Sequence record: LC494302.1
From: Escherichia phage SP27
Reading direction: 5' to 3' (one strand)
DNA: 64,000 nt
In this document: piece after piece, positions 1,944 through 58,496 of the stretch
Layout: each line of letters opens with the position of its first letter
How positions within the stretch are numbered: position 1 is the first letter of the stretch
The notes under the pieces: model-generated
The model's input: the letters and a program-made list of their open reading frames with translations, nothing else
What the model was told of the DNA's origin: nothing
Databases searched by the model: none
Made by a program: the position numbers and the translations under genes

Positions 1944-1944
1944 C

Positions 1945-2765: not shown

Positions 2766-2773
2766 AGAATATA

Positions 2774-3250: not shown

Positions 3251-3269
3251 ACAAAAGGACTTGACAAAA

Positions 3270-31495: not shown

Positions 31496-31588
31496 TTATA
31501 CCCTCCATTATAACCTTGTTAATATGTATATATTTAGTTTTATTATGCTGTTATCCAACAATTAATATGTTATTTGACAAAAGCAAAT

Positions 31589-31628
31589 ATAATAAAAACC
31601 AGACTTATTTAGAACAAGTCTGGTTAAT
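31589..31628. terminator. Hairpin terminator with T-runs on both sides
   Basis: CCAGACTT-(9-nt loop)-AAGTCTGG flanked by AAAAA upstream and TTAATTTTTTTT downstream. Confidence 0.45.
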
Positions 31629-31633
31629 TTTTT

Positions 31634-32530: not shown

Positions 32531-32546
32531 TTTAATATAATCTCCT

Positions 32547-34688: not shown

Positions 34689-34702
34689 TATGACATCCTC
34701 CC

Positions 34703-35830
34703 TTAAATATTATCTTGAATCGGTTGGATAGGAGCTTGCCATGAAAGAGTACAAATAATTTCCATTTTTCCATAAGGACTGTTGTTAACAGAATCGTTGA
34801 ATACACATGAAATAATTTCATCAACATCGGATGCTGCATGATTAGTTTCATTAACAATAAAACGCATCTGACGATTGATATCAAAGTAGGAAGTTGGTGC
34901 AATTACAGTCCCACCAATATCTTCTTGTGCTTCACCACCAAAACGTACAAACATATCAGTTACAGGAAGAGAATAAGGTTGTATAACGTTTACATCAATA
35001 TTAGAAACTACATATCCAGCAGGACACGTACCAATAACTAATAGTGCGTTAGTCCATGAGCTATCTATTGTATTTCTAATAGAAATTGTATCTTTACCTG
35101 GTGCACCTGGTTCGCCTTGTATACCTTGAATACCTTGCTGACCTTCTTTACCACGGAATAGAATACCCTCACTCCACTCTTTTGAAGGAGGGGTAGTTGT
35201 AGTTACTTCATCAACATAATATAGTTTTCCATCAGTGTTGTTATAAAAACAATAATCAACTGGAAGATTTTCAATACTTGGAAATTGATCACCACTGCTA
35301 TCAATATGGAAACGACCACGCGGACCTTGTTCACCACGGAAAGGTATACCATCACTCCAAGTAGCAGTTACACTTTGATAGAAATAAAGTTTACCATCTT
35401 GAGTATTATAAAATGTATAGTTATCAAAAAGACCAGTTGTTGGGAAAGTAGTTCCAGCACTATCAATGTGGAACGGCTTACCCGCTTCACCCGTATCACC
35501 TTTACCAAACTCAACACTAATCCATGTACTTGTCGGATCTTGTGCATCATTTGATTTAAAGTATAGAGTACTGGTATTGTTAGCCAAGCTTAAGTAGCAC
35601 CACCCAAGTGGTTCACCAACTTTAAATTGTTCGGAAGGAATTTCAAAACCAATCTCATTAGGATAAAAGTTTTTACCATTCTCGCCATTCTGTCCTACAA
35701 CAAGACCTAAATCTTGAATTGTGTTATCTGCATAGGTTACAATTAAATGCCCAGCACCATTAATAACTAGACTTTTGATGCCGGAGTTATTACATGAACC
35801 ACTGGACCCATTGTTAAATGAAATTGTCAT
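34703..35830 (-). CDS. Tail fiber-like protein with a collagen-like G-X-Y stretch and an internal duplication
   Basis: GKEGQQGIQGIQGEPGAPGKD; FHIDSAGTTFP…YNTQDGKLYFY repeated as FHIDSSGDQFP…YNNTDGKLYYV; ATG 35830 with AAGGGA RBS. Confidence 0.55.
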   Translation of the reverse strand: MTISFNNGSSGSCNNSGIKSLVINGAGHLIVTYADNTIQDLGLVVGQNGENGKNFYPNEIGFEIPSEQFKVGEPLGWCYLSLANNTSTLYFKSNDAQDPTSTWISVEFGKGDTGEAGKPFHIDSAGTTFPTTGLFDNYTFYNTQDGKLYFYQSVTATWSDGIPFRGEQGPRGRFHIDSSGDQFPSIENLPVDYCFYNNTDGKLYYVDEVTTTTPPSKEWSEGILFRGKEGQQGIQGIQGEPGAPGKDTISIRNTIDSSWTNALLVIGTCPAGYVVSNIDVNVIQPYSLPVTDMFVRFGGEAQEDIGGTVIAPTSYFDINRQMRFIVNETNHAASDVDEIISCVFNDSVNNSPYGKMEIICTLSWQAPIQPIQDNI

Positions 35831-35940
35831 AATATTTCCCTTGTATGAGTTAATGTCATATACCAATATTTATCAGTACAAAATACATTTCGTTATCATT
35901 AATAAATAAATGAAAGTTCACTACTAAAAGGGCTTAAACA

Positions 35941-38169: not shown

Positions 38170-38200
38170 AAAAAGGAGCCACACGGCTCCTTTTTGTTTT
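38168..38200. terminator. Bidirectional rho-independent terminator between convergent genes
   Basis: A7-GGAGCC-ACAC-GGCTCC-TTTTTGTTTT. Confidence 0.65.
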
Positions 38201-38663
38201 AATATCTATATGGTAAACTGTTGACAAACTGTGTACCTTCACGTATACTTTCCCATAGTGAGTAAAAATCTTTCATTAAGTTTGTGTTAAGTAAAGTATT
38301 TTTAGCACCAGGGTGTAATGGTTTAGGCCAAGAACCAATTCTAACCCAAGCATAACCAGAGCTTTCATGATTTAAAGTTGGTACAAATTCATTCTCAACT
38401 ACAATAACAAATGAATAATATTTAAATTTACCATTTTTTGTACAAAATACATCAAACGGTATAATATCAATAATGTTAGGTATTGAGTTGCCCAACTCTT
38501 CTTTAATTTCTCTCATCAGACCTTGTAGTGGTGTTTCGTTATGTTCAAGCTTTCCACCAACAAATGCCCAGTTGTTAGAATAGGTACTTCTTTCAGAACG
38601 CAAGTTTAACATCATATGTCCAGTACTTTTTGATAAAAATATAGCACCAACCGCTTCATTCAT
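38199..38663 (-). CDS. NUDIX hydrolase (second, intact copy)
   Basis: Nudix box GGKLEHNETPLQGLMREIKEELG; RBS AAGGAGG. Confidence 0.7.
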   Translation of the reverse strand: MNEAVGAIFLSKSTGHMMLNLRSERSTYSNNWAFVGGKLEHNETPLQGLMREIKEELGNSIPNIIDIIPFDVFCTKNGKFKYYSFVIVVENEFVPTLNHESSGYAWVRIGSWPKPLHPGAKNTLLNTNLMKDFYSLWESIREGTQFVNSLPYRY

Positions 38664-38676: not shown

Positions 38677-40020
38677 TTATTTGTCAGTGAAAGTTATTTT
38701 CCAATATCCCTGACGATACACAGGCATGATACTTTTATGCCATTTAAATTTGTCATTATATCTATAATAACCATTGTCTTCTTTATTATAAATGTAATTT
38801 CGTACAGTAGATGGATCAATTAATTGTGCACCATCATTTGTAATTTTAAACAAATAATTTGATGGGATTTCGGTTTCTTTATAAATGATGTTATGTATAC
38901 TGTTATTTACATAATATTGTTCAGGTAATGCACTTGAAAGTACTGAATCTTTCTGCACAAACCCATGTATAGTGTAATCAACAGTATAATTGGTATTATC
39001 AAGCTGTACTATAATTTTGTTGGCATCTTCATTTTCACCATACGACGCTATATGACCTTTTAGTGGGTTGTCTTCTTCAATAGATTGTTGAAATTTAATC
39101 CCTACTTTTTTGTCATCAAAATTTGGTTCTAGATATTTAAGATATTTTTCCCATGAATATATTCCACCGTTGGGAGAAACCGCAGATAGCGATTGGCTAA
39201 CCAAGGTAAGTTGGTATGTATCAGGTAAATTATACTTGGAATTAGTAATTTCTTCAACTTTAATGCATAAATTCTTGGGTGTAAAAACATCTGTTATTAT
39301 ATCTGAATAATTTCCCATTTCAAAATCAAATTCGTCACGAGCACCTTTAATATTTGTAGTAATCTGTTGGATTAATTTTGGTTTTTCAACAATAGCTGGT
39401 AAAGAAAACCATATTGTCGTTTCAAATGTTAAAACCATTATATCCAAATCTGGGTCAGTTCCTTGTGGAAAACCACGAGTAGAAAACTGACAATCTATTA
39501 GTTCAACATCACTAAGCGATGTCCAATCTAACGGGTTATCAGATAATTGAAGTTGTATACTAGGTGCAAACAAAGTTGAGATTTGTTCGAATAATTCCAT
39601 TTTAGTTTGAGTTTGAGTTACCCAAATATTCAAATCAAACGTAAAAGTCCAAGGTACTGGGTTATGTCTTACAATTTTGTATTGTGTGTCAAGATCTTTT
39701 GTGTACTCATTAATAGCAGGGGACTTGTTAGACCCCATTACTATAGTTTCGTTGGCATTAGAACGAATATTTTTACGATCCAACTTTAGTTGATTAACAC
39801 TTATGGTCATTATAGGTGCTGATGGGAGAACATTTTCACTATTCCCATTTATAATTGCTGCTGCCATTCTTGAAATATCGGCATAGCGACATGGAACCTT
39901 TTTGTATTTTGGGTTTCCATTAGCATCAATACCATTTTGTACTTGAAATTCACCAAAAACTCTGATAAGATGTTTCAGTACTCTGCGAAATTGACCGTCA
40001 TAATAATAATCTATTTTCAT
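38677..40020 (-). CDS. Hypothetical structural protein (baseplate/tail?)
   Basis: 447 aa; start overlaps the upstream stop (ATGA); co-oriented with the next structural gene. Confidence 0.45.
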   Translation of the reverse strand: MKIDYYYDGQFRRVLKHLIRVFGEFQVQNGIDANGNPKYKKVPCRYADISRMAAAIINGNSENVLPSAPIMTISVNQLKLDRKNIRSNANETIVMGSNKSPAINEYTKDLDTQYKIVRHNPVPWTFTFDLNIWVTQTQTKMELFEQISTLFAPSIQLQLSDNPLDWTSLSDVELIDCQFSTRGFPQGTDPDLDIMVLTFETTIWFSLPAIVEKPKLIQQITTNIKGARDEFDFEMGNYSDIITDVFTPKNLCIKVEEITNSKYNLPDTYQLTLVSQSLSAVSPNGGIYSWEKYLKYLEPNFDDKKVGIKFQQSIEEDNPLKGHIASYGENEDANKIIVQLDNTNYTVDYTIHGFVQKDSVLSSALPEQYYVNNSIHNIIYKETEIPSNYLFKITNDGAQLIDPSTVRNYIYNKEDNGYYRYNDKFKWHKSIMPVYRQGYWKITFTDK

Positions 40021-41580: not shown

Positions 41581-41620
41581 GTTTATTAATTAGAGTGACG
41601 TGAATCACATAGGAGAATAC

Positions 41621-43909
41621 ATGAATCTTACTCAATTGTTCAAAAAAAGCGACGAACTGGCAACATCTCTAGGTCATACATTCTTGACTATTGACCACGT
41701 AAGTGCCACAGTACTGACTATTGATAGCATCAAGAACGTATTTGAAGATATGAACATTGATGCAGACAAACTGCACAACCGCCTGATGAACTATCTTAAA
41801 AATACAACAGTTCCACATGCACCAAAAAGTGTTAAAGATGAAGACGCGAATCGAACTTCACTTCTAGTGAATCGCGTTGTACATGAGCTTTCTAAAAAAT
41901 CAGTTATTGAACAACTAAAAAGTGATGATTTTTCGATTGATGCATATTTTGTTCTATTCGAATGTCTGTCTTTCCCTAACACAGCACTAGAAGCTGCGTT
42001 AAAAGAAGAAGGTGTTAGCTGTACTGAAGCTGCACGTGCATTACAGAAACACGTTGAGTCACTTGATAAAGGTATCAACTTACAAAGTATTAATGACGAA
42101 CCGATTGGAGATAAAAAAGTGGCCCAACAGCAGCAATCATCTAAACAAAAAGGTTTGGAAGACTATACAACGAATCTAACTGCTCTTGCAAAAGAAGGCA
42201 AACTAGATCCTATGATTGGTCGCCAGAAAGAATTGTCTGCATTGATTGAGACTCTTGCTCGCAAAACCAAAAAGAATGCTATTCTCACTGGTGAAGCTGG
42301 TGTAGGTAAAACACAAATCATCGACGGGCTTGCACAAGCTATTGCTGATGGTAACGTACCTGAACACCTGAAAGACGTTGAAATTCTTTCACTAAATGTT
42401 GGTGCATTGACTGCTGGTACTAAGTATCGTGGTGAATTTGAAGAACGCATCGACAATTTGCTAAAAGAACTAAAGAAACGTGAAAATACTATTGTTTTCA
42501 TTGATGAAATTCATATTATGGTTGGGGCTGGTTCCGCAAGTAATGGTTCTATGGACATGAGCAATATGCTTAAGCCAGCACTTTCACGTGGTGAGATTCG
42601 TGTAATTGGTGCAACAACATATGATGAATATCGTAAAAATATCGAGAAAGATAGTGCATTAACTCGTCGTTTTATGAAAATTGACGTAGTTGAGCCGACA
42701 ATTGATGAAACTCGTGCAATTGTTAATGGTTTGAAACCAACGTATGAAAAATTCCATAATGTTGAGTTCACATCTGATGCAATGGATGCTGTAATTTCTC
42801 TCAGTGATAAATTCCTGAAGAATAAGCACTTCCCAGATAAAGCAATTGATCTAATGGATGCTGCTGCGGCTAAAGTTCGTTCACGTGACAACAATAGTAA
42901 GCTAATTACTGCCAATTTGATTCAAGAAGTTGTTGCTGGTATTGCCAATTTGGATATCAACGTGGTTGCATGTACTGAAAGTGATCGTATGCGTAATCTA
43001 CCAGATGCACTACGCTCACGTGTATACGGTCAAGAGGAAGCTATTCAAAAATTAGTTGATAACGTGATGGTAGCTCGTGCAGGACTGCGTGACAAATCTA
43101 GTGTTCAGGGTGCATTTATGTTTGTTGGACCATCTGGTACTGGTAAAACAGAAATTACCAAAGCATTAGCAGACGCAACTGGTGCGGAACTCATTCGCTT
43201 TGATATGTCAGAATTTTCTCAAGAACATACTGTTTCTAAACTAATTGGTTCACCTCCAGGTTATGTTGGTCATGATTCTGGTAACGGTTTACTGTTGGAT
43301 AAAATTGAGCAGTTCCCTAATGCAGTACTGTTACTTGATGAAATTGAAAAAGCAGATCGTAAAGTACTACTAACCTTCCTACAGGTTTTGGATGAAGGTC
43401 GTCTGACTGGTTCTCAAGGTAAAACTGTATATTTTAATAACGTAACTGTTATTATGACTACAAACCTTGGTGCGGCTGATTCAACAAAGCGTAGCATTGG
43501 TATGAGCGGTAGTGACACTGCACAGGACAAGGCAATTAAAGCATTCTTGCCACCAGAGTTTATTAACCGTATTGATAGTATCGTTACGTTTAAAGACCTA
43601 AGCAGTGAAGCTATTGACAGCATCATTGATAAGTTCATGGGTGGTTTGAATGAACAAGTCAAAGACCGTAATGTTAAAGTTACATTAACAAAAGCTGCAC
43701 GTGAATGGCTTGCGAAAAATGGGGTAAAAGTTGGTATGGGTGCACGTCCAATGAAACGTACCATTGAACAAAACATTCGTGTGCCACTAGCTAAAGAAAT
43801 GTTGTGTGGTTCACTTGTGAATGGTGGTAACATTACATTTGATGTTATTGATGGTAAAATCGGTATTAAGCCGAAACGTACCAAAGCTGTAGATAAAGCA
43901 CTAGTATAA
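41621..43909 (+). CDS. clpA: ClpA-like AAA+ unfoldase (Clp protease ATP-binding subunit homolog)
   Basis: Two AAA+ modules ([24 protein letters not shown]), [17 protein letters not shown] loop at the ClpA IGL position; ATG 41621 with AGGAGA RBS. Confidence 0.85.
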
Positions 43910-43911: not shown

Positions 43912-43947
43912 AAAGAAAAGGAGAGCATAATGCTCTCCTTTTTTTAT
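43912..43947. terminator. Bidirectional rho-independent terminator between clpA-like and the giant gene
   Basis: A-rich-GGAGAGCA-TAA-TGCTCTCC-TTTTTTTATT. Confidence 0.65.
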
Positions 43948-46900
43948 TACTTAACTAATAATATATTTTTAATATCATTACCACTAACTTGTAGACTATC
44001 AGTGTATACTGAAAGATCTATAGTGTAACTATTTTGTGTGTAACGTTTTAACATATCATAATTACCTAAATTAATTCCATTGAAAGAATATGTAGTATTA
44101 AGTTTAAAATCATGTTCTGCACTATACATTACACCACGGAGTAAATTATTTGCATTTCTAACTTCAACTTTTTCATATCCAATCGATATAATATCATTCA
44201 TGTTTGCGGCTGAACCGGATAAAACATTATTTCTAATACTATAAGGACTTATTGATTTAGGTTGAGAAACATAGGTTGTATTTTCTTCACTAATGGTTGT
44301 GATGTTAGTAACAGTACCACCAACAACACCGATATACATACCGTCAACCATTGGGAATCCATAAACCCATATCCCTTCATTATTTCTAAACGGTTGAATA
44401 ACACTTGAATCATATTCGATAACGTTGATTTCTAAACTATCAGTCATTTTAGTTCTTGCCAATTCACTAAGAACTCCCGCACCCGTAATTGGTAAGTTAT
44501 AACCGTTATCGATAGTAATTCCATCAACATCAAATATTTCATTAGAGATTATCCAAACGTCAACGTCATCTGGTGTTATTCCGTCATTGTACTTACCACC
44601 ATTTAAAGTAGTATCGTAGAAAACATCATAATTAATTACATCAATGGTGTAATTTCTATTTTGTTCATACAATTTAATACCATTCTTGACAAATTCAGGG
44701 TCAGCAAATGTTCTAACACGAACAATGTTCAATGCTAGAGGCTGTACTGGCTCATTTTGTTGTGCAAGAGTGATGTTATCATAACGGAGAACTGCACCAG
44801 TACTCTCATCAATCAATTCAATCGTTTCCTTACCTGTATTTCTTACAGTGAATAGGATCGGAGTTGTATTGTTTTTGATGTTAGATACACGCAAGATTGT
44901 TTCCCATGTGTGATTTTGATATCTCACAAAATCTTCACCATCAGGAGTGAAAATCATCACCTTATCACCATCAGATAGGTCATTGTCAACTATTTCTGCT
45001 TCAGTTAAGCTATTAATAGATCTCACACGATAGAAATATTTTTCATCAAACTTCGATGTTGTTTTATTAATATCATTTTCAATCTTAGCATATGAAGGAA
45101 TACTTACAATTGCTTCTGTATGTTTATATGGATTGATAATTGCCATACCTTCAGTTTGATATCTGCTGTTATCACGTAATTGTACAAGAGATACATTGTC
45201 AAACCCATATCCATCAACTGTAAATCTAATTTGACCTACATCACGCCCAGAAGGGTTTATGTCAGATATATCCACAATATAAGGATCAACTTCATCATCT
45301 TTAACTTCCCATTTTATTGAAGAAGTTTGAGATTCCAATGCTAGGTTATCAAATGCATTCATATCATTGAAGTACTTAGCTTCAGTAATACTATCAAGTA
45401 TATATTGATAATCAGAATACATTGGATTATTTTGATCTAGTGGTAAATCATCAAGATTTATTTCAGCTAGTTCAACCATTTCACCATTTGTGATAAAATA
45501 ATCTTCCATGAAATCATCAATACTTTGTTCATCAGGTATACTTTGATATACACCGTTAACATTTAAGTAAACATATTTTCGTGGAATCATTGTAATTGCA
45601 TAGATATCAATTGGGGTCTTACTAAGAATCTCTTCAGCTTTTTCGTACTTATCAGTAGCGTCTTTGTCGAATAACCCTCTCATACCTGCTAATACGTGAA
45701 TAGCATCAGTATAGAAACGGGTATCACCACCTACTTCATCATAACGATAAACATATACACCATACTCAACTTCAAGTTTAACTTTTACTTCATAGTCTGA
45801 TGCGTCAGGATTTTTATCTTTAATTAATGAAATGTATTTTTGATACAATTCACTGCTTATTTCAAAATATCCATAGTTATAATCATTACTAGAAGAAAAG
45901 CCTAATGGAAGTCTAGTACTAGGATTGTCATTATAAGTAAGTCCACTAAATCCACATCCAACTTCATCGTGAATTTTCTCATCACTTATATCTTTATAAA
46001 GTTTCAAACGGTTTGCCAATGTGTTATACTGAACATATTGTCTAAGGTCAGTAAACATATCGTTATGCGTTGATTCTTTATAAACACGTTCCAATGTAGC
46101 AGTGAATTCATCAGTTGCTTCTAAATCTTCCGCATGGTCTTTATACCACTGGTTAACGCCATATGCTGTTCCTAGTGTTACATCCAATTCTGGATAGTAG
46201 ATTTGCATTTGATAAGCAATAAGAAGATCGAAAGTTTCTTCACTATATTCTGGGAAAGAATATATATAACGTTGTAATTCATAGTTACTAACAGCATCCT
46301 TTTCATTGGATTGATATTTGTTATTAACACTTACTAATTCATTTATGCTTGCCAAATCTTCATTTGGTTTACACTGAATATTATCATAATGCATAATAAT
46401 ATCAATTTCTTGGAATCTTCTATTTGGTGTAACGAAATCACTTGGTAGTGAACCTACCTGTTCCCATTTTTGGGTAATTTCATTAAATTGAGCGTACTCA
46501 TAATCCCAAATATCTTTTTCAGTTTTGATCCAAGAACCGTCAACGAAAATATATCCATTAGGATCTAAATCATTACATAGACCTTTTATTAAATCATCAT
46601 CAGATGTCTTTTGCTCTATTTGTGAACGAATTTTAGTTCTATAAGGTTTAACTTCTTCAAAATATTCAACAATTTGATTAATCAAATTATCGTTTGAATA
46701 GTTTTGAACTAATGATTGTTCCAAACCAACAATATAGATATATGATGTTTTAAATACCCAATCCACAACACTTTGTTCAACATGTACATATTTGACCATA
46801 TCAAAAACAATTTCGCTTTGATGTAAATCGAAAGAATTTTTGAGTAAAGCTAGTGCTTTACGAACGTTGATTTCACGATTGCTTAGTGAACCATTATCAT

Positions 46901-49900
46901 TATGAACACTATAATCTGCGTAAAGCATATCATTGAGTTCAACTGTACTGTTTTCACGACCAATCGCTTTCCAATAAATTGAATCGCGTGATTGTGATTT
47001 AATATACAATGTCCAAATGTTTTCACTATCGGTAACTCTGATAATATCGCCAACTTGGTAGTTTTTAGTATTAGCATCTTCTAAGCTTGACTCTTGAGTA
47101 TAAGTCGTGTTACTATCATATCCAACATCATACCAATCAGCATATGACCAGTACTGAGTCATGTCTAATGAGGTTCCTAGTGATTCAACATAATCAGATT
47201 GTTTAATCATTTTATGTTGTCCCTCACCTTTGTTTTCTAACGTTATAGTAACAACACTACCCGCGTTTGCTGGACTATTCATTAACTGAATATATCCATT
47301 TTCGTCGAAGTGAATAAAATAAACAGCACTAGAAGTTAATGGATTTGGTAGATATCCACTAGTACTTAAAATAACAGCGTCATTTTCTTTAAATTTATCA
47401 CTTTCAACTGCAATAACTAATTCATTATTGTAAGACAACACACGGAAAGAAACTTCATTAGGGTTAACTTCAGTGGTTTTAACATTAAACACATCTTCCA
47501 TAACAACACTATTAGTGGTTATGTTTTGTGACCTATAATAATTATTAGCACTTTCTACAAAGTTTCTACGAGCTTCTATAACATTTTGGAACCAAGTTTT
47601 GTTTGATCCTAAACCGTTATCAACATCTGGATATAATAAATTAATCACAGAACCTGATTCAGTTGTTTCTTGACCAATTAGTGAGTTCCACATTGAATCC
47701 CAAATTAGTGGGTTAAAGTTATAGCTGTCACCTTCTTTACATAGTTGATACTGGTCATGTTTAACAACTTCAGTACTATCCATGTAATAAGAAACAGTTA
47801 AAATACTGGTATCATCATTCACTTTAAATTGCATATTACTAAGAATAAACGAGTTTTCATTTATTGGAGCGAACCAAGGAATGTTTAGCTGTGTTGGATC
47901 TTTAATAATACGAGCAATGTCAGTACATGATTTCGTTCTGGTATGTAGTGGTGGTACATAAATTGTATCACGTACCCAGAAATAGTATTTTGTTACATAA
48001 CTATCAGTTGAACTATCATATTCCAAAAATGTACTATAATTATCTTCAAGTGCAGTTCCACTTGGTAGATACATAGTATTATTTTTGTTTTTCTTAGCAA
48101 CATCTTTACAGTATTTGTCCCAGTTATATGGCTCAACTGGTGAACAAACCCACTCTAACACATCAATGGTACTATGTGGTAACAAACGGCCCCAGTTGTA
48201 ACGTTTGTATTCATTGGTTGCATCAATATCAACATTACCGTCTGCGTCATAAATTGCACGAGTATAATCCAAATAAAATGCAGTGCTAGTGTTCCACCAT
48301 ACTTGACCAACTTTATCAGCACCCCAAGCCTGGATTAACTCTCCATTACTATTATACTGTGCAGGATCAACTGGTGAAGTATATGTTACGTTTTGCATAG
48401 CCGCACCTGGAATAACACCATTAATTGGGTCATAAACGTTTAGATATAGCTCAGTAATGTTAGTACGTTCATCATATGTCGTTGGACGATCAAATAAAGT
48501 ACTTTGTGGTGCTTTAAAACTATATTTCTTGTCAATGTAAGCTTGACGATCATCAGTACTGGCAAAACGTGATACATAACGATACAAACGTGGACGTGTA
48601 TCTGGATCAGTAAATTCAATATCAATAGAAGTGTCAAATGGAACTACCATAACTTTAGGATCAGAACCAGCAGTATAATATTGACTTTCTACTGTTAAAG
48701 TATCTGGCATAAAGTTAGTTTCATCAACAAAATAATAATAATCACCATCTTCAAGTGGTACATTATCAGTTAAAGTTACTTTACAAAATTGTTCAGCATA
48801 CACATCGGTATTTTCAATAGGTGTTATAGAAACCATTTGTACATTAGTATCAACCAATTCAAAAATGTTCCACAAACCATTACCGTCTTTAAACATCCAC
48901 ACAGATTCAGGATTTTCACCTTTACCATTAGTATAAGTTATGCGGTCATTATATGCAGTACTGAAATCTTTTGTTGTGTACGATACTTCATCCAATGTTA
49001 CTGGACCAATATCTGGAAGTTGGATGTTTTCACTTCTTCCACTACGCATTGGGAATGAGAACTTACCATTTGGACGTGTAATCCAACGAGGATCTTTACC
49101 TTGCTCACCGAAGTATACAATATGATTACCATTACCATTTGAAGTTGCATTTACATCAAAAGAAACCATTTGAGGTTGTTGTTTAAATTGGTCATTGATT
49201 AGTTTAAATTGAAGGTTTTTCTTACCATCAATATTACCATATGTACCAATTTTAAATGCCCATTCTTGTAATGCTTTATATTCATCAGTGTCATATGATT
49301 TAGAAACACGAAGTACACGTTCTAAAACTTGGTTAGTACCTTTATCGTGAATGAATCCTTTATAGAAATCAACACGACTAACATCACTACTAATCATACG
49401 CTGTAGATAATCACGAGATTGATAACCAATCAAATGGTTTGACAACTCTTGTAATTGTACATCACTTACTGGAGTTTCACTATCATAATAATGTTGGAAA
49501 TCCGACACTAATTTTTCAAATGATGGTAGTGTTCCAGCTTCCAAGATAATAAATCCAGGAGCTTGTAGGCGACCAGTCCATGAACCAGTAATATATCCAT
49601 ACATTTTAATTAGTTCTTGAATAGAACCATATGTTGGCTGATAAATGTAATCACCAAAAATAGTTTTATCATCAAAAATAACAGCATGTTCATATGAACA
49701 CAAACTTAAACGAATCAATGCAATGCGTTTATTAGATTCTAAAGTTCTAACAGTGAAGATATTTCCAATACGAGAAGTTTCAATTTCATATTGGCGAATA
49801 CCTTGGTTATTATCATCAAGTAATGACCATACACCACCATTATTTTGCGTAATAGATTGTACTGAACCAAAGTCTGCCCCAAATTTAGCGTTTGCAGCAC

Positions 49901-52900
49901 TTGGGGTACAAGAAATAAATTCACCAGTTACTAGAGAATTCTGACTCCAGATCACGAAATCTTTAGCAATAGTGTTCCAATCTTGTTGAGCACCACTATC
50001 ATTTACATCTTCAAAAATCCAACCATGTTCTTTAAGATATTCACCATATCCACAAATAAAAGTATAAACTTCTTGGTAACTATTGAAAACTTTACCATAT
50101 TCAATTGAAGCTTCAGACTTCCATTCATTATAATGAACAACATTACGGTTTTCCAATTTAAGAGTTACTTTTCTACCATTTTTTACTGGAAGTTTATATT
50201 TAAATTTAGCACCAACTAGATCATATCCATCAATCTGATATGCACTACCATTCCAAGTAATTTTGATCGCACTCATTTGCTCATCACGGATATTATTAGA
50301 ACGAACAAGACCAATGGTTTGGTTTTCTTGTGAAATAAGACCGAAAGATTTAGCATTGAATGTTAGCTGATCTGCTTTAGTAAATCCTCCAATTTTATGA
50401 CCAACATTTATATAAGAAGAACGAACTACATCCCCATACTTGGTGGTAATATTTTTATTTTGATACATCAAATGGTCACTTACAAACATTTGATAACCAA
50501 TTGTTCTTGTGCTATTTTCACCATGAACTACTGTATTTTTATCAAAATTAATACGCTTACGTGTATCACCATAAAGGAATTGTGAACCATCAGTGAATAC
50601 TTCTTTTAAGTTATCGTTGCGGGTATCCCAGAAATAGTTAGCAAATTGTGCTGGTTTAGCTTTATACAAAAGCATCATTTGGTCATATGCAAACAATGTA
50701 GTGTTCATGTATGTAAATTCCATGTCACCCATATCACCATATGTCCAAGGTTCTGCTCTATGATTTAAAGATCCAGACACTAAACCTAAAATTTCAGGTG
50801 CAATATATTCAACCACACAAATATCAATACCAGAAGATGTTTTATTTCCAGTTTTTGTAATTTTGAATGGCTGTACACCAAATCTTTTATATTTGTCATA
50901 TTGACCACGACGATCACCAAATAAAATAGTTCCAGTACTGCTATCTCCAATAGTTCCGTCAATATCCCAAAGACCACTAGGAACTAAATCACCTTGCTCA
51001 TTCATAACAAGTGCTTCATATACATATACAACATCACTATCACGTTCACCAACTTGAACAGCCGTTGGTTCGTATTCTTGGTTCCACCAAGTTGGACGTT
51101 GTGTAAAGCCAAACATTTCCCACGGATGGGTAGCTGGGCGATATGTACCATATTGGTCAGTGTAAATGGCACGCCATGAACCACGTGCAGGAATTTCAGT
51201 ACTTTGACCATTAACTACATAATAAGTGCCAGTATAGTTCCAAGTTCTCCAATTGTTAGGATCATAATCATGTGTACTATTACTGATACCATTAGTTGCG
51301 GTGAAGTTAATGTATCCACGTAGTAATAATGTTTGTTTCTCTTCAGCACTATATTCAGTTTTAGTGAAATATGGTGTAGGGAAAAGGTCATCACTATTCA
51401 ATACTGGTACGTAATCAACATCTTTGAATTTATTATCAATACTATTAAAAATTCTATTTTCTAATTCATATACAACATCATCCATTTTATCAACACCATT
51501 GATAACACGGTATGCTTTGGAAATAATACCAGTATGACTGATGTTATAACAGCTTGGTTTACTACCAGCAGTGAGGAATGTCGCTTTTTCTGGTACATAT
51601 GCTTGAAGAATACCTAAGAACTGTGGTGTTGGTGGTATAAATGCACGAATGAATCCAGAAGTACTTCCAACATTATCATAATAGAATGGGAATGAACTAT
51701 CACGTCCCATATTAATAGTAGTTAAAATTGCATCAACAATGTTTGCAGCACTATTTTGTAAAAAGTCTGATGGATTTTCATCATACATACGAAGCATTTG
51801 TGTATTAAATTTATTAATGAATCTAAAATATTCAGATTGCATAAACATAGTTGCTTCAAACAAATCAATATCTTCATTTGCAGTATGTGCCATCAATGGA
51901 AGCATAGATGCTTCATTTTGGATAATTTTAGTACCTACGCCATTATTAACCAATCCTTTAGCCAAACGTTCTTCATAGTCATTGAAATCATCAGAAGAAC
52001 CACGTGTAATGTTCTTTTGAATAATATCCTGAAAATGTAAAGTGTAGTCACCTTGGTTAATGTATATAATATTAGAATTATATGGGTTATTTTGTAGGTT
52101 GATTGGAACTTCATATGCACCTAATTCTTTATTAGGAGTTACAGTACTGCTATAAGTTCTAATTTGAATAACAGAATCTTCATCCAATTCTACAGTACTA
52201 TCTAGAGTGATGCTTTGTACTTGACCTTTTGAAACATTTTTGGTATATTTGGACACATCAACACCATCAACCACAACTTCAATAATATCAGAATCATTAT
52301 CTAAAACTTTTTGTGCCAATTCGAATGTATGGTCATATTTTACAATCTGAACACCATCACCAGTAATTGGATGCCAATCTAGATAAGTTTCACGGTCAGC
52401 TTTATAGTACTGATATGTTCTATCAACTTCAATAACATATGCATACATACCATCAACTGGTTCTTTAAAAACTTCCATATCATAAACAGTACTGAATACA
52501 CGATACATATCAGTACGTTGGACTTGTGGAGTTTGTTTTACAAATTGTTTAGAGTACTCTTCTGAACGAACCCAATCGGTTTGAAGATTCATTTCATTAT
52601 TTTCATCAATAATGTTATAATAGTATAAACCATCAATTTCAACTTCTTTTCCAAGATGGTCATAGGTATAACGTTGGGATTGTAAAAAGTTTTCATAAAT
52701 GTAATAATTATAATCACCAAGTTCAATGTTATATCCATATACACTATCAGTTGCATAGTTGTAATTTATTTTAAAACCAAACAACTCTGAACCTTTAAAG
52801 TTACTTGATGGATATGTAGTACTGTTGTCAAGTTTGATACCATTACGATCATAAAGTTGGAATTTAGGGAATACGTTAACACTAGTTTTTGATTGTGCAC

Positions 52901-53948
52901 GAACCCACAAAGATCCATTCCAGTACATAGAACTATTACCATACTCATTACCTTTAGTGATTAGAACAACATCACCATCTTGAGGTTCACCACTTGGGCG
53001 TGATTCGGTTTCTTCTTCTGGATCTAGTGCTAAACCATAAACACGAGTACCATCTTGCATTTTTTTCACATATACATTATAAATTCTATTGTTTTCACCA
53101 TTGTTACCAATACTGGTGAATAGAATACGCATTCCATCTTGCGGAATAATACCATCAATACGTATACCACTATTAATATCTTTTTGAACGATATCTTCAG
53201 GTTTAATAATATCAGAGAACAGATCAACAGTTCCACGGAATTTTGTACCGTAGTTAATTAGCTCAATATTTTTATTATATTCAATAATTGGTGCACGTGC
53301 ACGAATAAAACGTGAATCTTGCATTAATTCTTCAGTTAATATTGAGCCATCTTCTAATGTTTCACCTAAAGTATACCAAAAGTTTTGTAGTGACCATGTA
53401 TTACCATTAAGTGCTCCACGTTCCATTACAATGTAATCAGGTGAAGTAATATTATAAGAGTTTTTAGTATCCCAAAGATATGAGCTAAAATTGTTCATTT
53501 TATTTGGGTTAATAGCTGGAGTCCATGCATAAAACTTACCGTTGAACAAACGGCTTTCATTATCGGTTAGTGCTCCATAATGATTCATGTATCCAACTAG
53601 ATCATCATAAAATTGAATTGAACGAATTGTCGAATCATCATTTTTTGAGACGTAAGCAGTGGACAACTGATAAAGTTGACGTGCTACAGTACTTTCATGT
53701 AAGAAGATATTACCAGCAGCGGCAGGAGAACCCATATCACCAATATAGCCGTCAACTAATTCGTTTTCAGCCGGATTAAACCATTGTTGAATAACATCAT
53801 CACTGACTTTTTGAATATCTTCTAAGCCTTGCATCCACTCAGGCAATCTTTTAATAAAAAGCTTCTTCTGTACTGCTTCAGCCATCTGTGTAGGTTGAAA
53901 CTTAAAATTATTAGTCATTTTTGGACTCCATATAATTCGTTCATTCAT
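43947..53948 (-). CDS. Giant structural protein (about 3330 aa), probably an expanded baseplate wedge/fiber-network protein
   Basis: Single uninterrupted frame immediately downstream of the gp6-like gene; likely start is the second Met (plus 53918, GGAG 8 nt upstream). Confidence 0.7.
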   Translation of the reverse strand: MNERIIWSPKMTNNFKFQPTQMAEAVQKKLFIKRLPEWMQGLEDIQKVSDDVIQQWFNPAENELVDGYIGDMGSPAAAGNIFLHESTVARQLYQLSTAYVSKNDDSTIRSIQFYDDLVGYMNHYGALTDNESRLFNGKFYAWTPAINPNKMNNFSSYLWDTKNSYNITSPDYIVMERGALNGNTWSLQNFWYTLGETLEDGSILTEELMQDSRFIRARAPIIEYNKNIELINYGTKFRGTVDLFSDIIKPEDIVQKDINSGIRIDGIIPQDGMRILFTSIGNNGENNRIYNVYVKKMQDGTRVYGLALDPEEETESRPSGEPQDGDVVLITKGNEYGNSSMYWNGSLWVRAQSKTSVNVFPKFQLYDRNGIKLDNSTTYPSSNFKGSELFGFKINYNYATDSVYGYNIELGDYNYYIYENFLQSQRYTYDHLGKEVEIDGLYYYNIIDENNEMNLQTDWVRSEEYSKQFVKQTPQVQRTDMYRVFSTVYDMEVFKEPVDGMYAYVIEVDRTYQYYKADRETYLDWHPITGDGVQIVKYDHTFELAQKVLDNDSDIIEVVVDGVDVSKYTKNVSKGQVQSITLDSTVELDEDSVIQIRTYSSTVTPNKELGAYEVPINLQNNPYNSNIIYINQGDYTLHFQDIIQKNITRGSSDDFNDYEERLAKGLVNNGVGTKIIQNEASMLPLMAHTANEDIDLFEATMFMQSEYFRFINKFNTQMLRMYDENPSDFLQNSAANIVDAILTTINMGRDSSFPFYYDNVGSTSGFIRAFIPPTPQFLGILQAYVPEKATFLTAGSKPSCYNISHTGIISKAYRVINGVDKMDDVVYELENRIFNSIDNKFKDVDYVPVLNSDDLFPTPYFTKTEYSAEEKQTLLLRGYINFTATNGISNSTHDYDPNNWRTWNYTGTYYVVNGQSTEIPARGSWRAIYTDQYGTYRPATHPWEMFGFTQRPTWWNQEYEPTAVQVGERDSDVVYVYEALVMNEQGDLVPSGLWDIDGTIGDSSTGTILFGDRRGQYDKYKRFGVQPFKITKTGNKTSSGIDICVVEYIAPEILGLVSGSLNHRAEPWTYGDMGDMEFTYMNTTLFAYDQMMLLYKAKPAQFANYFWDTRNDNLKEVFTDGSQFLYGDTRKRINFDKNTVVHGENSTRTIGYQMFVSDHLMYQNKNITTKYGDVVRSSYINVGHKIGGFTKADQLTFNAKSFGLISQENQTIGLVRSNNIRDEQMSAIKITWNGSAYQIDGYDLVGAKFKYKLPVKNGRKVTLKLENRNVVHYNEWKSEASIEYGKVFNSYQEVYTFICGYGEYLKEHGWIFEDVNDSGAQQDWNTIAKDFVIWSQNSLVTGEFISCTPSAANAKFGADFGSVQSITQNNGGVWSLLDDNNQGIRQYEIETSRIGNIFTVRTLESNKRIALIRLSLCSYEHAVIFDDKTIFGDYIYQPTYGSIQELIKMYGYITGSWTGRLQAPGFIILEAGTLPSFEKLVSDFQHYYDSETPVSDVQLQELSNHLIGYQSRDYLQRMISSDVSRVDFYKGFIHDKGTNQVLERVLRVSKSYDTDEYKALQEWAFKIGTYGNIDGKKNLQFKLINDQFKQQPQMVSFDVNATSNGNGNHIVYFGEQGKDPRWITRPNGKFSFPMRSGRSENIQLPDIGPVTLDEVSYTTKDFSTAYNDRITYTNGKGENPESVWMFKDGNGLWNIFELVDTNVQMVSITPIENTDVYAEQFCKVTLTDNVPLEDGDYYYFVDETNFMPDTLTVESQYYTAGSDPKVMVVPFDTSIDIEFTDPDTRPRLYRYVSRFASTDDRQAYIDKKYSFKAPQSTLFDRPTTYDERTNITELYLNVYDPINGVIPGAAMQNVTYTSPVDPAQYNSNGELIQAWGADKVGQVWWNTSTAFYLDYTRAIYDADGNVDIDATNEYKRYNWGRLLPHSTIDVLEWVCSPVEPYNWDKYCKDVAKKNKNNTMYLPSGTALEDNYSTFLEYDSSTDSYVTKYYFWVRDTIYVPPLHTRTKSCTDIARIIKDPTQLNIPWFAPINENSFILSNMQFKVNDDTSILTVSYYMDSTEVVKHDQYQLCKEGDSYNFNPLIWDSMWNSLIGQETTESGSVINLLYPDVDNGLGSNKTWFQNVIEARRNFVESANNYYRSQNITTNSVVMEDVFNVKTTEVNPNEVSFRVLSYNNELVIAVESDKFKENDAVILSTSGYLPNPLTSSAVYFIHFDENGYIQLMNSPANAGSVVTITLENKGEGQHKMIKQSDYVESLGTSLDMTQYWSYADWYDVGYDSNTTYTQESSLEDANTKNYQVGDIIRVTDSENIWTLYIKSQSRDSIYWKAIGRENSTVELNDMLYADYSVHNDNGSLSNREINVRKALALLKNSFDLHQSEIVFDMVKYVHVEQSVVDWVFKTSYIYIVGLEQSLVQNYSNDNLINQIVEYFEEVKPYRTKIRSQIEQKTSDDDLIKGLCNDLDPNGYIFVDGSWIKTEKDIWDYEYAQFNEITQKWEQVGSLPSDFVTPNRRFQEIDIIMHYDNIQCKPNEDLASINELVSVNNKYQSNEKDAVSNYELQRYIYSFPEYSEETFDLLIAYQMQIYYPELDVTLGTAYGVNQWYKDHAEDLEATDEFTATLERVYKESTHNDMFTDLRQYVQYNTLANRLKLYKDISDEKIHDEVGCGFSGLTYNDNPSTRLPLGFSSSNDYNYGYFEISSELYQKYISLIKDKNPDASDYEVKVKLEVEYGVYVYRYDEVGGDTRFYTDAIHVLAGMRGLFDKDATDKYEKAEEILSKTPIDIYAITMIPRKYVYLNVNGVYQSIPDEQSIDDFMEDYFITNGEMVELAEINLDDLPLDQNNPMYSDYQYILDSITEAKYFNDMNAFDNLALESQTSSIKWEVKDDEVDPYIVDISDINPSGRDVGQIRFTVDGYGFDNVSLVQLRDNSRYQTEGMAIINPYKHTEAIVSIPSYAKIENDINKTTSKFDEKYFYRVRSINSLTEAEIVDNDLSDGDKVMIFTPDGEDFVRYQNHTWETILRVSNIKNNTTPILFTVRNTGKETIELIDESTGAVLRYDNITLAQQNEPVQPLALNIVRVRTFADPEFVKNGIKLYEQNRNYTIDVINYDVFYDTTLNGGKYNDGITPDDVDVWIISNEIFDVDGITIDNGYNLPITGAGVLSELARTKMTDSLEINVIEYDSSVIQPFRNNEGIWVYGFPMVDGMYIGVVGGTVTNITTISEENTTYVSQPKSISPYSIRNNVLSGSAANMNDIISIGYEKVEVRNANNLLRGVMYSAEHDFKLNTTYSFNGINLGNYDMLKRYTQNSYTIDLSVYTDSLQVSGNDIKNILLVK

Positions 53949-53963: not shown

Positions 53964-53991
53964 TATAAAAAAGGCGTTCCGAAGAACGCCC
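53964..53991 (-). terminator. Rho-independent terminator (minus strand) between the gp6-like and giant genes
   Basis: GGCGTTC-CGAA-GAACGCC with AAAAAA on the plus strand upstream. Confidence 0.5.
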
Positions 53992-53997: not shown

Positions 53998-56900
53998 TTA
54001 AGAACCGATATTAATATTACTTTTAGCTAGTGAGTTAACAATTTGAACATTTTCAACAGATGCAGTACTCAAAAATATTTGGTCTGAACGTGAAGGGATT
54101 TCAAATAGAGAGCCAAATTTTGAATTTGGATTTTGTGCAACTATAACAATGGTACTAATATGTCTACCTAACTGTGAGTGTATGTAAGTACACAAATCAG
54201 TATAATAGAAACTTTCACCGAAATCCCAGTTGTCAACATTGAAGTATTCATTAGTTAATGCTATAACATTTTGACGAATTTCATCGTCACTCATTGTGCT
54301 GTTTGGTAATTTCACTACTTTAAAATCAGCTTTGTAATCTTCAGCAGCACTGTTGCCAAATAAAGGTAAGTACTCAGCACTATGCCAAATAATACTATCA
54401 CTAATGACTATTTTTTGTTCAACATCTTTGAACATATCTTTCAATTCAACCGATGTAGGTGGTTTAGGAATACTACCAACAGCATTATTTTTCAACCAAA
54501 CGTCAACTTCAGTTTTATATGAATTGGTTAATACATACATATCAATTAAGTTTGTTCTACTAGGATCAATGCGATTGTCGTCAGGTGCATAGTGTTTCCA
54601 ATGGAAGTCTATACTAGTACGTGCATTAGTTTTAACAGTGTACTGTGAAGTAACATCTTTGTATCCATAATAATCTAGCTTCTGATTCTCGTCAGCATTA
54701 GTTCCCATGTTATTAATTGCACGATAAAAAGCCAATTCAGGACTAACAGTGCCAGTATCATCGGAATAAGTTAAATTACTAATTAGCTGTCCTAAACGAT
54801 CATTGTTGTTACCAACTGTTTGTTCAATAAAATAATATTTACCATCATAGTTAAAACCAACTAAAAATCCAGAACCTTTACTATATAATCCACTCAATGT
54901 GGTTGAACGAATTGCGTTATTTCTAACAAATTCAGTTCTTTTATATGCATTCGGCTCTGCCAAGGCTTGTTCCATTGTATAAGACCACGATGAATCAAGA
55001 AGTGTGAAGGTATCATTTGGTAACGACAGTACTGATATAGTGAAATCACTATTTTCCTGAAATACCAAAATACCACCATATTTTAATGCATCGGTTCCAG
55101 TCCAAGTAGGAACAATTTCTTTAAATTGGTTTGGTTCCAATGGTATACCATTACTATCTACTTTCCTAGATGTAACAATAACACGAGAACCATCTAGATA
55201 GCCATTCTCTTGTTGAATTGTGTCATAAATTTGAAAATCTATATTACTTGTCAATCCTGAATTACTACTACTAGTAGTGTTAGATGATAAAATTTCAATC
55301 TTATCACTTTGAACTGTACCAGTACTAATATCAGTAATTTTTTTAGATGATACAAAGTAAAATCTTACTTTTTCTCCACCCACAAAAATATATTCAATAC
55401 CGTTAGCATCAAATTCCCAAGTTTCTGCTGTATATTTTACATTAATTATAATTAAAACTTCATTACCATTATATACAATAGTATCATCATTGGTACTTAC
55501 TTCAATAGGAACCCATGATGTCGTTTCTTTGTCATGTACAATAACAAAATCAGTTTTTTTATCTAGCATAGCAGAAATTGCTTGAACTTCAACCGAGTTA
55601 AATCTAGTTCTATATGGTAAAATGTACTCTATGGCTTGCATTCCACTTGGAACCGATGTACTCAGTACATAAAATCCATTATCCAATACACTAACTACAC
55701 TAGCCCATATAGTAGTTCCAGAATTAGAAAATTTAATTAGAGTACCAACCTGATATGAACCATAAACTGTACCAGATGAACCCAAAATTCTACCATATGT
55801 GTTAGTTGTATAATTTGAATTGTATACCGGAGTCCATGCTTGTTGTATTTCAATACCAATTGTATTTGATGGAAACGCTTGGTAACGTTGTATTACCGCA
55901 TTTTCACCAATCAATGGTTGAATATTGTCAATAACAATACTAGCATTTGTTTTTGTAGTTGGTAGCAATAATGATCTATTAAATTGTGTGTTTTCTTGAT
56001 ATAATGCACCATCATCACTAAAAACATCGGTATTTTGATACTTACCAGTAGGATCATTAATATCAATAAATCTTGATTGTCCACTATAAATTCTATTAAT
56101 AGCTTTAGATTTAAGTACAGTATTGCCTAAACTAAGTGGTGCAATATTATAATCTTCACCATTGACAAAACGGTTTTGTGTATAGTACATTTGTGGTGCA
56201 CGTGCTTTAATCTGCTCAATAGTCTCTGCACTTTGTGCACGGTCGGACTCATATTGTAATGAAAAACGTATATCCAATGTACTAGATTCATAACTTGACT
56301 GTGTTTTTGTACGATATGTATATTTTACGCTTTTGTTTTGAATTTCAGAAGTTTTAATGTTATATGTTTTACCATTACTAACACGATACCATACGCGGAA
56401 CGTCCCACGGGGAACAACACCACTTCTTGAGTCTGGATACTTAATTGTTATTTGATCTTTATCACGAGTAGTAACAGCAAAAATTGTTTTTAATTGACGA
56501 TTAACAGTGTTATATGCAATACTTTCCATTGATGGAACTTTTGTCCATTTGGTACGAACAATACCATCTTCATTTATTTCTTGAACCCATACATCAGTTT
56601 CGTTGATATTATCAACGTTAATATCTTGTATACGGTTCTCTTCACGGATAGCATATTGATAATCTTGATATGTCAATGTACCTTGTACGAAATATACAAA
56701 AAAACCAGTATTTGGTGAACTAAATCCATTACCATCATTTTGATAAACAATATATTTTTGCTCTTGTGGTTCTGGATGTCGTTCTTCAACACCAACAGAC
56801 GTAATATCAGGATTCACTACTTCAAATGTCATAGATTCACCATTGACAGTTGCAATAAATGGAATACTGGGTGCTGTCATTGGGATGGTGTTCATTCGAT

Positions 56901-57459
56901 ATAGTTGACGAGAGACACCATTAACATCAATACGCTTGACTGGATTACCAAATTGGTTAGTACTGACAAATGAACTGTTCATTACTAGAATGAAGTTTTC
57001 ATACCAGTTAGCATCCATCGGGTCATTCCAACGAATGATTTTATCTTTTAATGATTCATTAAAACTATTACGAACATCTTGGTTTGTTTTAATTTCGGTT
57101 AATTTAGCAACTGCACGACCTGGATATGAGCGGCGTGGTGAGTAAGAAATCATTTTAGCTAGTTTTAGTACTGATGCACGACGAGTTGCAGTATCTAAAA
57201 AGTTTTCACGTGTGTTCAAATCCATACGAAATGCCAAGTTCTGCCCTAGCATAGAAATCGTATCTAAAATAAAAATAAACTGGTCGTTTTCGATCCAGTC
57301 GTTGAATGAGTCTGGGTAAGTTGCACGTAGATAATCAATCATACTCTGACGGATAGTATCGAAGTCATAAGCTGTAAGATTGATTTTATAAAAACTTTCA
57401 TATACTTGAGTCCAATCCTCACCAGCGTATAAATTTGATTGCCTTTTTTGTTGTGACAT
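53998..57459 (-). CDS. Baseplate wedge protein, gp6 / Baseplate_J-like (1153 aa)
   Basis: N-terminal FIFILDTISMLGQNLAFRMDLNTRENFLDTATRRASVLKLAKMISYSPR resembles the Baseplate_J pattern; RBS AAAGGAA. Confidence 0.6.
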   Translation of the reverse strand: MSQQKRQSNLYAGEDWTQVYESFYKINLTAYDFDTIRQSMIDYLRATYPDSFNDWIENDQFIFILDTISMLGQNLAFRMDLNTRENFLDTATRRASVLKLAKMISYSPRRSYPGRAVAKLTEIKTNQDVRNSFNESLKDKIIRWNDPMDANWYENFILVMNSSFVSTNQFGNPVKRIDVNGVSRQLYRMNTIPMTAPSIPFIATVNGESMTFEVVNPDITSVGVEERHPEPQEQKYIVYQNDGNGFSSPNTGFFVYFVQGTLTYQDYQYAIREENRIQDINVDNINETDVWVQEINEDGIVRTKWTKVPSMESIAYNTVNRQLKTIFAVTTRDKDQITIKYPDSRSGVVPRGTFRVWYRVSNGKTYNIKTSEIQNKSVKYTYRTKTQSSYESSTLDIRFSLQYESDRAQSAETIEQIKARAPQMYYTQNRFVNGEDYNIAPLSLGNTVLKSKAINRIYSGQSRFIDINDPTGKYQNTDVFSDDGALYQENTQFNRSLLLPTTKTNASIVIDNIQPLIGENAVIQRYQAFPSNTIGIEIQQAWTPVYNSNYTTNTYGRILGSSGTVYGSYQVGTLIKFSNSGTTIWASVVSVLDNGFYVLSTSVPSGMQAIEYILPYRTRFNSVEVQAISAMLDKKTDFVIVHDKETTSWVPIEVSTNDDTIVYNGNEVLIIINVKYTAETWEFDANGIEYIFVGGEKVRFYFVSSKKITDISTGTVQSDKIEILSSNTTSSSNSGLTSNIDFQIYDTIQQENGYLDGSRVIVTSRKVDSNGIPLEPNQFKEIVPTWTGTDALKYGGILVFQENSDFTISVLSLPNDTFTLLDSSWSYTMEQALAEPNAYKRTEFVRNNAIRSTTLSGLYSKGSGFLVGFNYDGKYYFIEQTVGNNNDRLGQLISNLTYSDDTGTVSPELAFYRAINNMGTNADENQKLDYYGYKDVTSQYTVKTNARTSIDFHWKHYAPDDNRIDPSRTNLIDMYVLTNSYKTEVDVWLKNNAVGSIPKPPTSVELKDMFKDVEQKIVISDSIIWHSAEYLPLFGNSAAEDYKADFKVVKLPNSTMSDDEIRQNVIALTNEYFNVDNWDFGESFYYTDLCTYIHSQLGRHISTIVIVAQNPNSKFGSLFEIPSRSDQIFLSTASVENVQIVNSLAKSNINIGS

Positions 57460-57525: not shown

Positions 57526-57557
57526 CAAAAAGAAAAGCACTCCGAAGAGTGCTTTTG
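57526..57557 (-). terminator. Rho-independent terminator (minus strand) after the gp25-like gene
   Basis: AAAGCACTC-CGAA-GAGTGCTTT with an A-rich plus-strand tract upstream. Confidence 0.5.
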
Positions 57558-57560: not shown

Positions 57561-57956
57561 TTATAAAGACGATACTGAATATGTTGCCATTCTGTTATTA
57601 CTTCTTGCATCGAATACAATAGTAAGTTCTTCTAATGTATCCAATACTACGTACTGTAATACAATATTCATTTGGTATCCATATTCTATTCTTGAAATTT
57701 GCAATTTCTTAAGATTTAAGCGTGGATCTAAGCTAATTATTCTACGGGCATCTGCTTCCAAAAGGTTGATAGTATTATAACCTTCCAATTCAAACAGCAA
57801 ATCCCATGCAATAAAACCATAGTCAGCATCAAATGCTCTTTCGCCTTTTTTTGTATTGAAATGATTCATTAAATCTTGGCGAACCAATTCACTATCATAC
57901 AATGTTTCAGTTCTACCCACTACTGGGGTAGAAAAACCTTTAAAAACAACTGCCAT
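57561..57956 (-). CDS. Baseplate wedge protein, gp25 / GPW family
   Basis: 131 aa; GERAFDADYGFIAWDLLFE…ADARRIISLDPR matches the gp25-type G-R-F-P-FG core; RBS AAAGGAAA. Confidence 0.75.
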   Translation of the reverse strand: MAVVFKGFSTPVVGRTETLYDSELVRQDLMNHFNTKKGERAFDADYGFIAWDLLFELEGYNTINLLEADARRIISLDPRLNLKKLQISRIEYGYQMNIVLQYVVLDTLEELTIVFDARSNNRMATYSVSSL

Positions 57957-57971: not shown

Positions 57972-58460
57972 TTATACGGATTCAACAATACGTGCCATCT
58001 TTTCCGCTCTTGAAGTGGTTTGTTTATACCATGTACTATCACGCAATTCCTTACCAGCAGTTTTATAATCAGCCTTACCTAATGCGGTCATTGCTTTTTT
58101 AAATTTTAAAACTTTGGTTTTGCCCATCTGGAATACCATCAACCATAATACACGTTGAACCTGTATAGGTGCGGTCATACCAAATTGTTCATAAATTGAT
58201 TTTGCATCATTGTACGCAGTTTGAGCATCTTTAAGAAGAAGTTGGTCAGCTTGTGCTTCTGTTAAACCATTCTTGAAATTTTCACCAGGTAAAACTAGGT
58301 GACCATAGCCAATTGTATCAAGACCTAAGCTGTCTTTATATACCCAAAACTTATCATTTTTAAAATAACCAAGTTTTTTCTGATAAGCAATAGTTCCTTC
58401 AAATTCTTTAATTTCCTTAAAAAATTGCTCATCTGTATTTTTAATTTCCCATTTACTCAT
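57972..58460 (-). CDS. T4-type lysozyme (GH24), stand-alone
   Basis: FEGTIAYQ…YKDSLGLDTIGYGH catalytic E/D/T triad, MVFQMG, STWYKQTTSRAEKMARIV. Confidence 0.85.
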   Translation of the reverse strand: MSKWEIKNTDEQFFKEIKEFEGTIAYQKKLGYFKNDKFWVYKDSLGLDTIGYGHLVLPGENFKNGLTEAQADQLLLKDAQTAYNDAKSIYEQFGMTAPIQVQRVLWLMVFQMGKTKVLKFKKAMTALGKADYKTAGKELRDSTWYKQTTSRAEKMARIVESV

Positions 58461-58496
58461 AAAGATATCCTCGTTTTATTTATAGTACTAAAATAT

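Follow-up and report, generated by a model that had tools for sequence, protein, structure and literature searches.

What does a single reading frame of 10 kb do in the middle of a baseplate gene block, at the position where phage T4 carries gene 7? The question is raised by a stretch of 64,000 nucleotides from Escherichia phage SP27 (LC494302.1; the whole of this stretch is called the window), in which a giant open reading frame (ORF) of 3333 codons and a stop occupies positions 43947-53948 of the minus strand, with an ATG start. The answer favored here, to which a probability of about 0.6 can be given, is that the giant protein is a structural component of the tail baseplate in the role of T4 gp7, TssG and P2 gpI, present once per wedge, where it would form the periphery and provide docking sites for fibers. 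The giant is not in itself a discovery, because it has already been deposited, annotated, and seen by proteomics; its orthologs bear no annotation beyond "hypothetical" or "virion structural protein", and the publications consulted on these phages give it neither a location nor a role.

The giant gene is a genuine single ORF. The base composition of its strand predicts one stop codon per 12.4 codons, and the chance of a stop-free run of 3333 codons is therefore approximately 1e-121 (log10 P = -121), in agreement with an earlier note on this DNA that had described one uninterrupted 10-kb frame. Two other properties named in that note, richness in aromatic residues and a lack of the simple repeats found in fibers, are also borne out. 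Phe, Trp and Tyr together make up 13.05% of the protein (Tyr 7.1%), as compared to 8.88% in the 39 other long ORFs of the window. Self-BLASTP of the protein found no internal repeats, and Tandem Repeats Finder detected no tandem repeats in the gene, in contrast to the gene of an 1841-residue tail fiber, which has two arrays. The protein is acidic, with a pI of 4.6.

The DNA is 100% identical to that of Escherichia phages vB_EcoM_G17, CRJP21, and Sharanji, and 99.9% identical to that of PBECO4 and phAPEC6, all of them Asteriusvirus jumbo myoviruses of ~350 kb. Orthologs of the giant include PBECO4 gp538 (YP_009150852, "virion structural protein"), 121Q gp582, phAPEC6 gp245, RaK2 ORF070w (YP_007007225), and CBB_236, as well as proteins of GAP32 and K64-1, and phrog_10938 matches over the full length (E = 0, 5793 bits, residues 11-3330 against positions 1-3324 of a 3324-position profile). 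The orthologs of cultured Rak2-like phages, which are 58-100% identical over the full length, have the same neighbors and are found in virions, with no material difference from the giant of SP27. More widely, 59 clusters of homologs are colinear with it at 44-100% identity, and 198 clusters were drawn from 5.8 billion proteins, almost without exception giants of 2,780-5,638 residues, whose contigs reach 512 kb in length. Cultured carriers include Asteriusvirus and Alcyoneusvirus phages, GAP32, CBB, Serratia phage BF, Yersinia phage fHe-Yen9-04, and Erwinia and Xanthomonas jumbo phages, joined at ~28% identity by the PA5oct group, Sinorhizobium phage Phosso (469 kb), and Agrobacterium phage Atu_ph07 (490 kb).

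The giant is a virion protein, as demonstrated by published tandem mass spectrometry (MS/MS) of orthologs in three phages, phAPEC6, CBB and PA5oct, which supplies the virion proteomics that the earlier note had proposed as a check. In the phAPEC6 virion proteome, gp245 is represented by 17 unique peptides and listed as a single product of 381.88 kDa, right after gp244, a "baseplate wedge" protein; CBB_236 was found in CBB virions with 21 peptides, these counts not being quantitative; and the 3857-residue homolog of PA5oct is flagged as detected by electrospray ionization MS/MS. The CBB paper also used the giant gene, as the "largest ORF", to anchor a genome comparison.

Translation probably starts not at the first methionine of the ORF, which lacks a Shine-Dalgarno sequence, but at Met11, whose ATG (53918-53916) follows a GGAG (53929-53926) with a spacer of 7 nucleotides (53916-53929 in all, minus strand). 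Nearly all homologs begin at the equivalent of residues 11-14, and the mass computed from Met11 is 381.86 kDa, as against the 381.88 kDa listed for phAPEC6 gp245. Because the spacing of the GGAG, the starts of the homologs, and this mass all agree, the mature product is probably a protein of 3323 residues, and the annotations of PBECO4 and G17 are therefore probably 10 codons too long. A different kind of discrepancy is seen in the RefSeq entry for Klebsiella phage K64-1 (NC_027399.1, 56377-59976), where the initial 3.6 kb of the ortholog are covered by 13 features and the identical GenBank record AB897757 has one; the listing of 13 features is probably an annotation artefact.

The position of the giant gene is what suggests its role. 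The earlier note had placed it after gp25-like and gp6-like wedge genes in the same orientation, and the family assignments confirm this. The 131-residue gp25-like sheath initiator (57561-57956, minus strand) matches PF04965 (E 1.2e-8), and the 1153-residue gp6-like baseplate wedge protein (53998-57459, minus strand) matches phrog_10646 and, with an E of 1e-20, phrog_219; residues 33-108 of the latter protein align in register with residues 26-100 of T4 gp6, and its homologs carry PF27647. The same block encodes a gp53-like wedge protein of 104 residues (63435-63749, minus strand; PF11246, E 1e-4, above the gathering score; phrog_7145) and an 887-residue gp5-like spike/hub protein with an OB domain, DUF2345, and a C-terminal Phage_lysozyme domain (58497-61160, minus strand). 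Equivalents of gp53, gp5, gp25, and gp6 are all identified in the block, leaving gp7 as the sole universal wedge component without another candidate. Furthermore, the triad of gp25, a gp6-like protein of ~1,130-1,320 residues, and the giant is present in all seven contexts inspected, namely the window, PBECO4, RaK2, PA5oct, Atu_ph07, and two metagenomic contigs with ~25% identity. A place adjacent to, and downstream of, a gp6/TssF/J homolog in a gp25 block is a mark of the gp7/TssG/gpI class, and in each of the seven contexts the giant gene has this placement.

The giant protein and T4 gp7 (1032 residues) thus share a slot after gp6 in the gp53/gp5/gp25 block, and are both large multi-domain virion proteins, and the giant may, like gp7, be the third wedge chain that links the inner baseplate to the periphery, but it is 3.2 times longer and has no detectable similarity to gp7 in sequence or fold. 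A Pfam scan of the giant gave no family at E <= 0.01, including the gp7 models PF21428, PF21456, and PF21427, all of which are present in 120 of 120 listed gp7 homologs. A profile of 29 giant sequences had no match among PDB sequences, and hhalign comparison of the giant family (39 sequences) with the gp7 family (41 sequences) reached a best probability of 0.3%, or 1% or less when the giant profile was set against T4 gp7 alone. Likewise, T4 gp6, gp7, gp8, gp9, gp10, gp11, gp12, and gp53 scored against the giant like their own reversed sequences. On the basis of the Pfam scan, the profile-profile comparisons, and the reversed-sequence controls, the possibility that the giant is by homology a gp7, or a fusion of gp7, gp8, and gp10, was rejected. 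The earlier note had suggested a fused or expanded wedge and fiber-network protein, and had proposed a comparison with the gp7, gp8, and gp10 families; the gene position of gp7 and the presence of the protein in virions stand, whereas sequences and profiles give no relationship to those families.

Alignment by BLASTP to 120 homologs, together with a profile of indels and conservation, separates a family-wide conserved core, residues 14-2460 (46569-53909, minus strand), which is recognizable down to 24-30% identity, from a fast-evolving, lineage-specific C-terminal region, residues 2465-3333 (43950-46556, minus strand). Distant members of the family, PA5oct PQE65_gp355 (3857 residues), Atu_ph07 gp180 (4449 residues), the Phosso protein, and metagenomic giants of up to 5,638 residues, have in common with the giant of SP27 this core and the gp25/gp6-like/giant triad. 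They differ in having other C-terminal regions and large insertions with CBM_5_12, FG-GAP, Gly_rich_2, or Laminin_G_3 (the last listed for one relative), modules that the SP27 protein does not carry. Insertion hotspots are found after residue ~159 and at residues ~1252-1285, 1600-1825, and 2150-2260, the main one being residues 1600-1825 (48474-49151, minus strand), where relatives insert FG-GAP, CBM_5_12, or Gly_rich_2. In the relatives these three modules are confined to hotspots or to the variable C-terminal part, and none lies in a conserved block. Distant members do not share the final ~870 residues, whose divergence in the enterobacterial clade is ~1.5 times as fast as that of the core and, by sliding identity, gradual rather than an exchange of blocks. 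An exhaustive HMMER search of 1.84 billion representatives recovered only seven relatives of this region, all of them C-termini of orthologous giants or short fragments. A word-indexed search with the C-terminal 869 residues alone found no match, although the whole-protein query found homologs containing the region, and negatives from indexed searches with sub-fragments are unreliable.

At the opposite end of the protein is a conserved helical segment, residues 11-90 (53679-53918, minus strand), with conservation values of 0.49-0.61 and invariant residues F17, K29, I32, L35, P36, Q40, E43, Q46, Q54, and P59. These N-terminal ~80 residues are among the most conserved of the family, yet they are modeled with a predicted local distance difference test (pLDDT) score of 32-66, with helices at residues 20-33 and 42-54. 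A conserved N-terminus whose helices have low confidence in a monomer model is what would be expected of a segment whose folding depends on a complex, and residues 11-90 are a candidate for a core-bundle segment that would bind two gp6-like chains. Beyond this segment the predictions are better. The AlphaFold2 model of residues 11-1210, from a 23-sequence alignment, has a mean pLDDT of 84 and a predicted template modeling score (pTM) of 0.77, and that of residues 1265-2464 has a pLDDT of 74 and a pTM of 0.47, with single domains confident and their arrangement uncertain. Both models are mixed alpha/beta and multi-domain, with ~23% helix by DSSP elements in the first of them. Neither has fold similarity to solved gp7 in whole-model searches, which blur matches at the level of domains. 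As modeled, some 2,400 residues at the gp7 position fold confidently without a solved relative. To our knowledge, no baseplate structure exists for this very widespread clade of jumbo phages, cryo-EM of phAPEC6 having reached only 25 A.

If the giant does act in place of gp7, one copy would be present per wedge, or six per virion. Its N-terminal helical segment (residues ~17-60) would hold together two chains of the 1153-residue gp6-like protein in a wedge heterotrimer beneath gp25 and gp53, and the next ~2,400 conserved residues would be a string of mixed alpha/beta and immunoglobulin-like beta-sandwich domains. With this body, one polypeptide would make up the peripheral baseplate, for which T4 uses several proteins (gp7 to gp11) and phiKZ at least six. 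The exposed parts would be the insertion hotspots and the final ~870 residues, which would dock branched fibers, touch the cell surface, or both, and it is possible that movement of the fibers at adsorption is relayed through the giant to the core bundle and gp25, triggering contraction of the sheath. By a rough estimate of plausibility, six giants (2.3 MDa) and twelve gp6-like chains (1.6 MDa) fit into a baseplate of the size determined in RaK2 and CBB, 35-36 x 15 nm, which as a solid disc could accommodate ~12 MDa.

It is also conceivable, although unlikely, that the giant is a peripheral add-on rather than an equivalent of gp7, decorating the outside of the baseplate as phiKZ gp27 does, and that another protein completes the heterotrimer with gp6, such as one of the nearby virion proteins of 501 and 749 residues or the product of a gene elsewhere in the 350-kb genome. 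The synteny of gp6 and gp7 is indeed not universal, phiKZ gp128 being not adjacent to gp87, but the giant gene is directly after gp6 in 7 of 7 contexts, including very distant ones in which the other neighbors differ, and the N-terminus of the giant resembles an interface segment in being conserved yet disordered when modeled as a monomer. Improbable is a fiber-type appendage, which could be a tail fiber, a tailspike, or the tail whiskers of the "hairy" phages phAPEC6 and CBB. Tail fibers and tailspikes are recognized by trimeric fibrous repeats, a coiled coil, a beta-helix, or a known domain, and the giant has none of these features; it lacks repeats, Pfam and PHROG scans gave no match to fiber, spike, beta-helix, or collagen families, and the model is a compact multi-domain body (pTM 0.77, ~23% helix) as opposed to an elongated trimer. 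Moreover, the family extends well past CBB and phAPEC6, the two phages with hairs described in the publications consulted, and dedicated fiber and spike genes are found elsewhere in the window.

The large size of the giant and its presence in virions would suit a tape measure or an internal, ejected protein, but this reading has very little probability. A tape measure is mainly alpha-helical with a length proportional to that of the tail, and by our own estimate at ~0.15 nm per residue a tail of 123-128 nm needs ~800 helical residues, so that the giant with its 3,333 residues is ~4 times too long; it is also modeled as a beta-rich, multi-domain protein with ~23% helix, and the 749-residue protein encoded upstream of gp5 is a better fit by length. 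Negligible by comparison is the chance that the giant is an artefactual fusion of several genes created by sequencing or assembly. The region is annotated as 3-4 coding sequences only in Salmonella phages SD-1_S14, SD-2_S15, and SD-6_S16, whose genomes are 25-40 kb shorter than those of relatives. In SD-1_S14 (OR699183.1, 288388-298565), with a 310-kb genome that is ~40 kb short, however, the three coding sequences arise from frameshifting deletions of 13 and 11 nucleotides (24 in total) within what is the same reading frame, reflecting either an error of a draft assembly or a giant that is split in nature. A single ORF of 2,780-5,638 residues is kept, on the other hand, in more than 50 independent isolates and in the 198 metagenomic clusters, and the phAPEC6 product is listed as a single protein.

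The gp7-like role can be compared with other contractile systems. In phiKZ, the wedge heterotrimer is (gp87)2-gp128, and the outer periphery consists of gp27, gp26, gp139, gp130, gp157, and gp127 (PMC13250141). In extracellular contractile injection systems, Alg12, Afp12, and Pvc12 are wedge proteins that fuse gp6 and gp7 (PMC8894135), and the gp7-like parts are described in that literature as a hotspot for re-engineering and fiber binding; the likeness to the giant lies in the combination of a conserved core with variable, exposed modules. A more tentative proposal, somewhat short of an even chance, is that Rak2-, PA5oct-, and Atu_ph07-like phages build the whole periphery from six copies of one chain of ~380-600 kDa without a solved-fold relative, the N-terminus of which would replace gp7, and the hotspots and C-terminal part of which would be a platform into which glycan-binding modules and fiber anchors are plugged. 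If true, a periphery made of a single chain would be a third architecture, beside that of T4 (gp7 to gp12) and the multi-protein star of phiKZ.

Downstream of the baseplate block, a group of fiber and spike genes (25970-35866, minus strand) encodes candidates for docking onto the giant, namely a 387-residue tail protein with a collagen-like stretch, a 713-residue pectate-lyase-like tailspike annotated as colanic-acid degrading, a 298-residue virion protein, and the 1841-residue tail fiber. In RaK2 the fiber anchor is the N-terminus of gp528. In one metagenomic contig, genes with the fiber domains Gp34_trimer and Peptidase_S74 follow two small ORFs downstream of the giant, and in PA5oct a protein annotated as gp10-like is encoded two small genes downstream. 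Directly downstream of the giant gene in the window, the tail module is broken on the opposite strand by a gene for a 769-residue ClpB/ClpA-like double AAA+ ATPase (41600-43909, plus strand; AAA_2, E 2e-49, ClpB_D2-small, Clp_N). The same adjacency exists in PBECO4 (gp539) and RaK2 (ORF069), and is absent in PA5oct, Atu_ph07, and the two metagenomic contigs; a phage-encoded disaggregase beside so large a structural protein (380 kDa) could act as a chaperone in its assembly. The tail module further contains a gp15-like tail sheath stabilizer (38677-40020, minus strand; PF16724, E 2e-20), directly followed by a NUDIX/MutT hydrolase (38199-38663, minus strand).

Between the gp53-like and gp5-like genes is the 749-residue virion protein (61174-63423, minus strand), which has no family assignment and whose position is occupied in PA5oct and in contig L003 by a protein of 674-894 residues; by its length it could be the tape measure of a tail of ~120 nm, and a component of the hub is the other possibility. 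A separate lysozyme of 162 residues is encoded between gp5 and gp25 (57972-58460, minus strand), giving the baseplate block two lysozyme domains, the other being the C-terminal fusion of the gp5-like protein. Terminator-like hairpins with T-runs are found on the minus strand after the gp25 gene (57533-57556), between the gp6-like and giant genes (53972-53991; 8-bp stem, TTCG loop), and 5 nucleotides past the giant stop codon (43916-43942; 12-bp stem). With a hairpin of this kind behind each of these three genes, partial terminators may bound each wedge gene, and perhaps tune stoichiometry. Lastly, a strong depletion is seen in the window for the late-promoter motif of T4, TATAAATA, with 1 copy against 10.3 +/- 3.4 expected, and the sole copy (58477-58484, minus strand) is 17 nucleotides upstream of the 162-residue lysozyme gene that precedes gp25.

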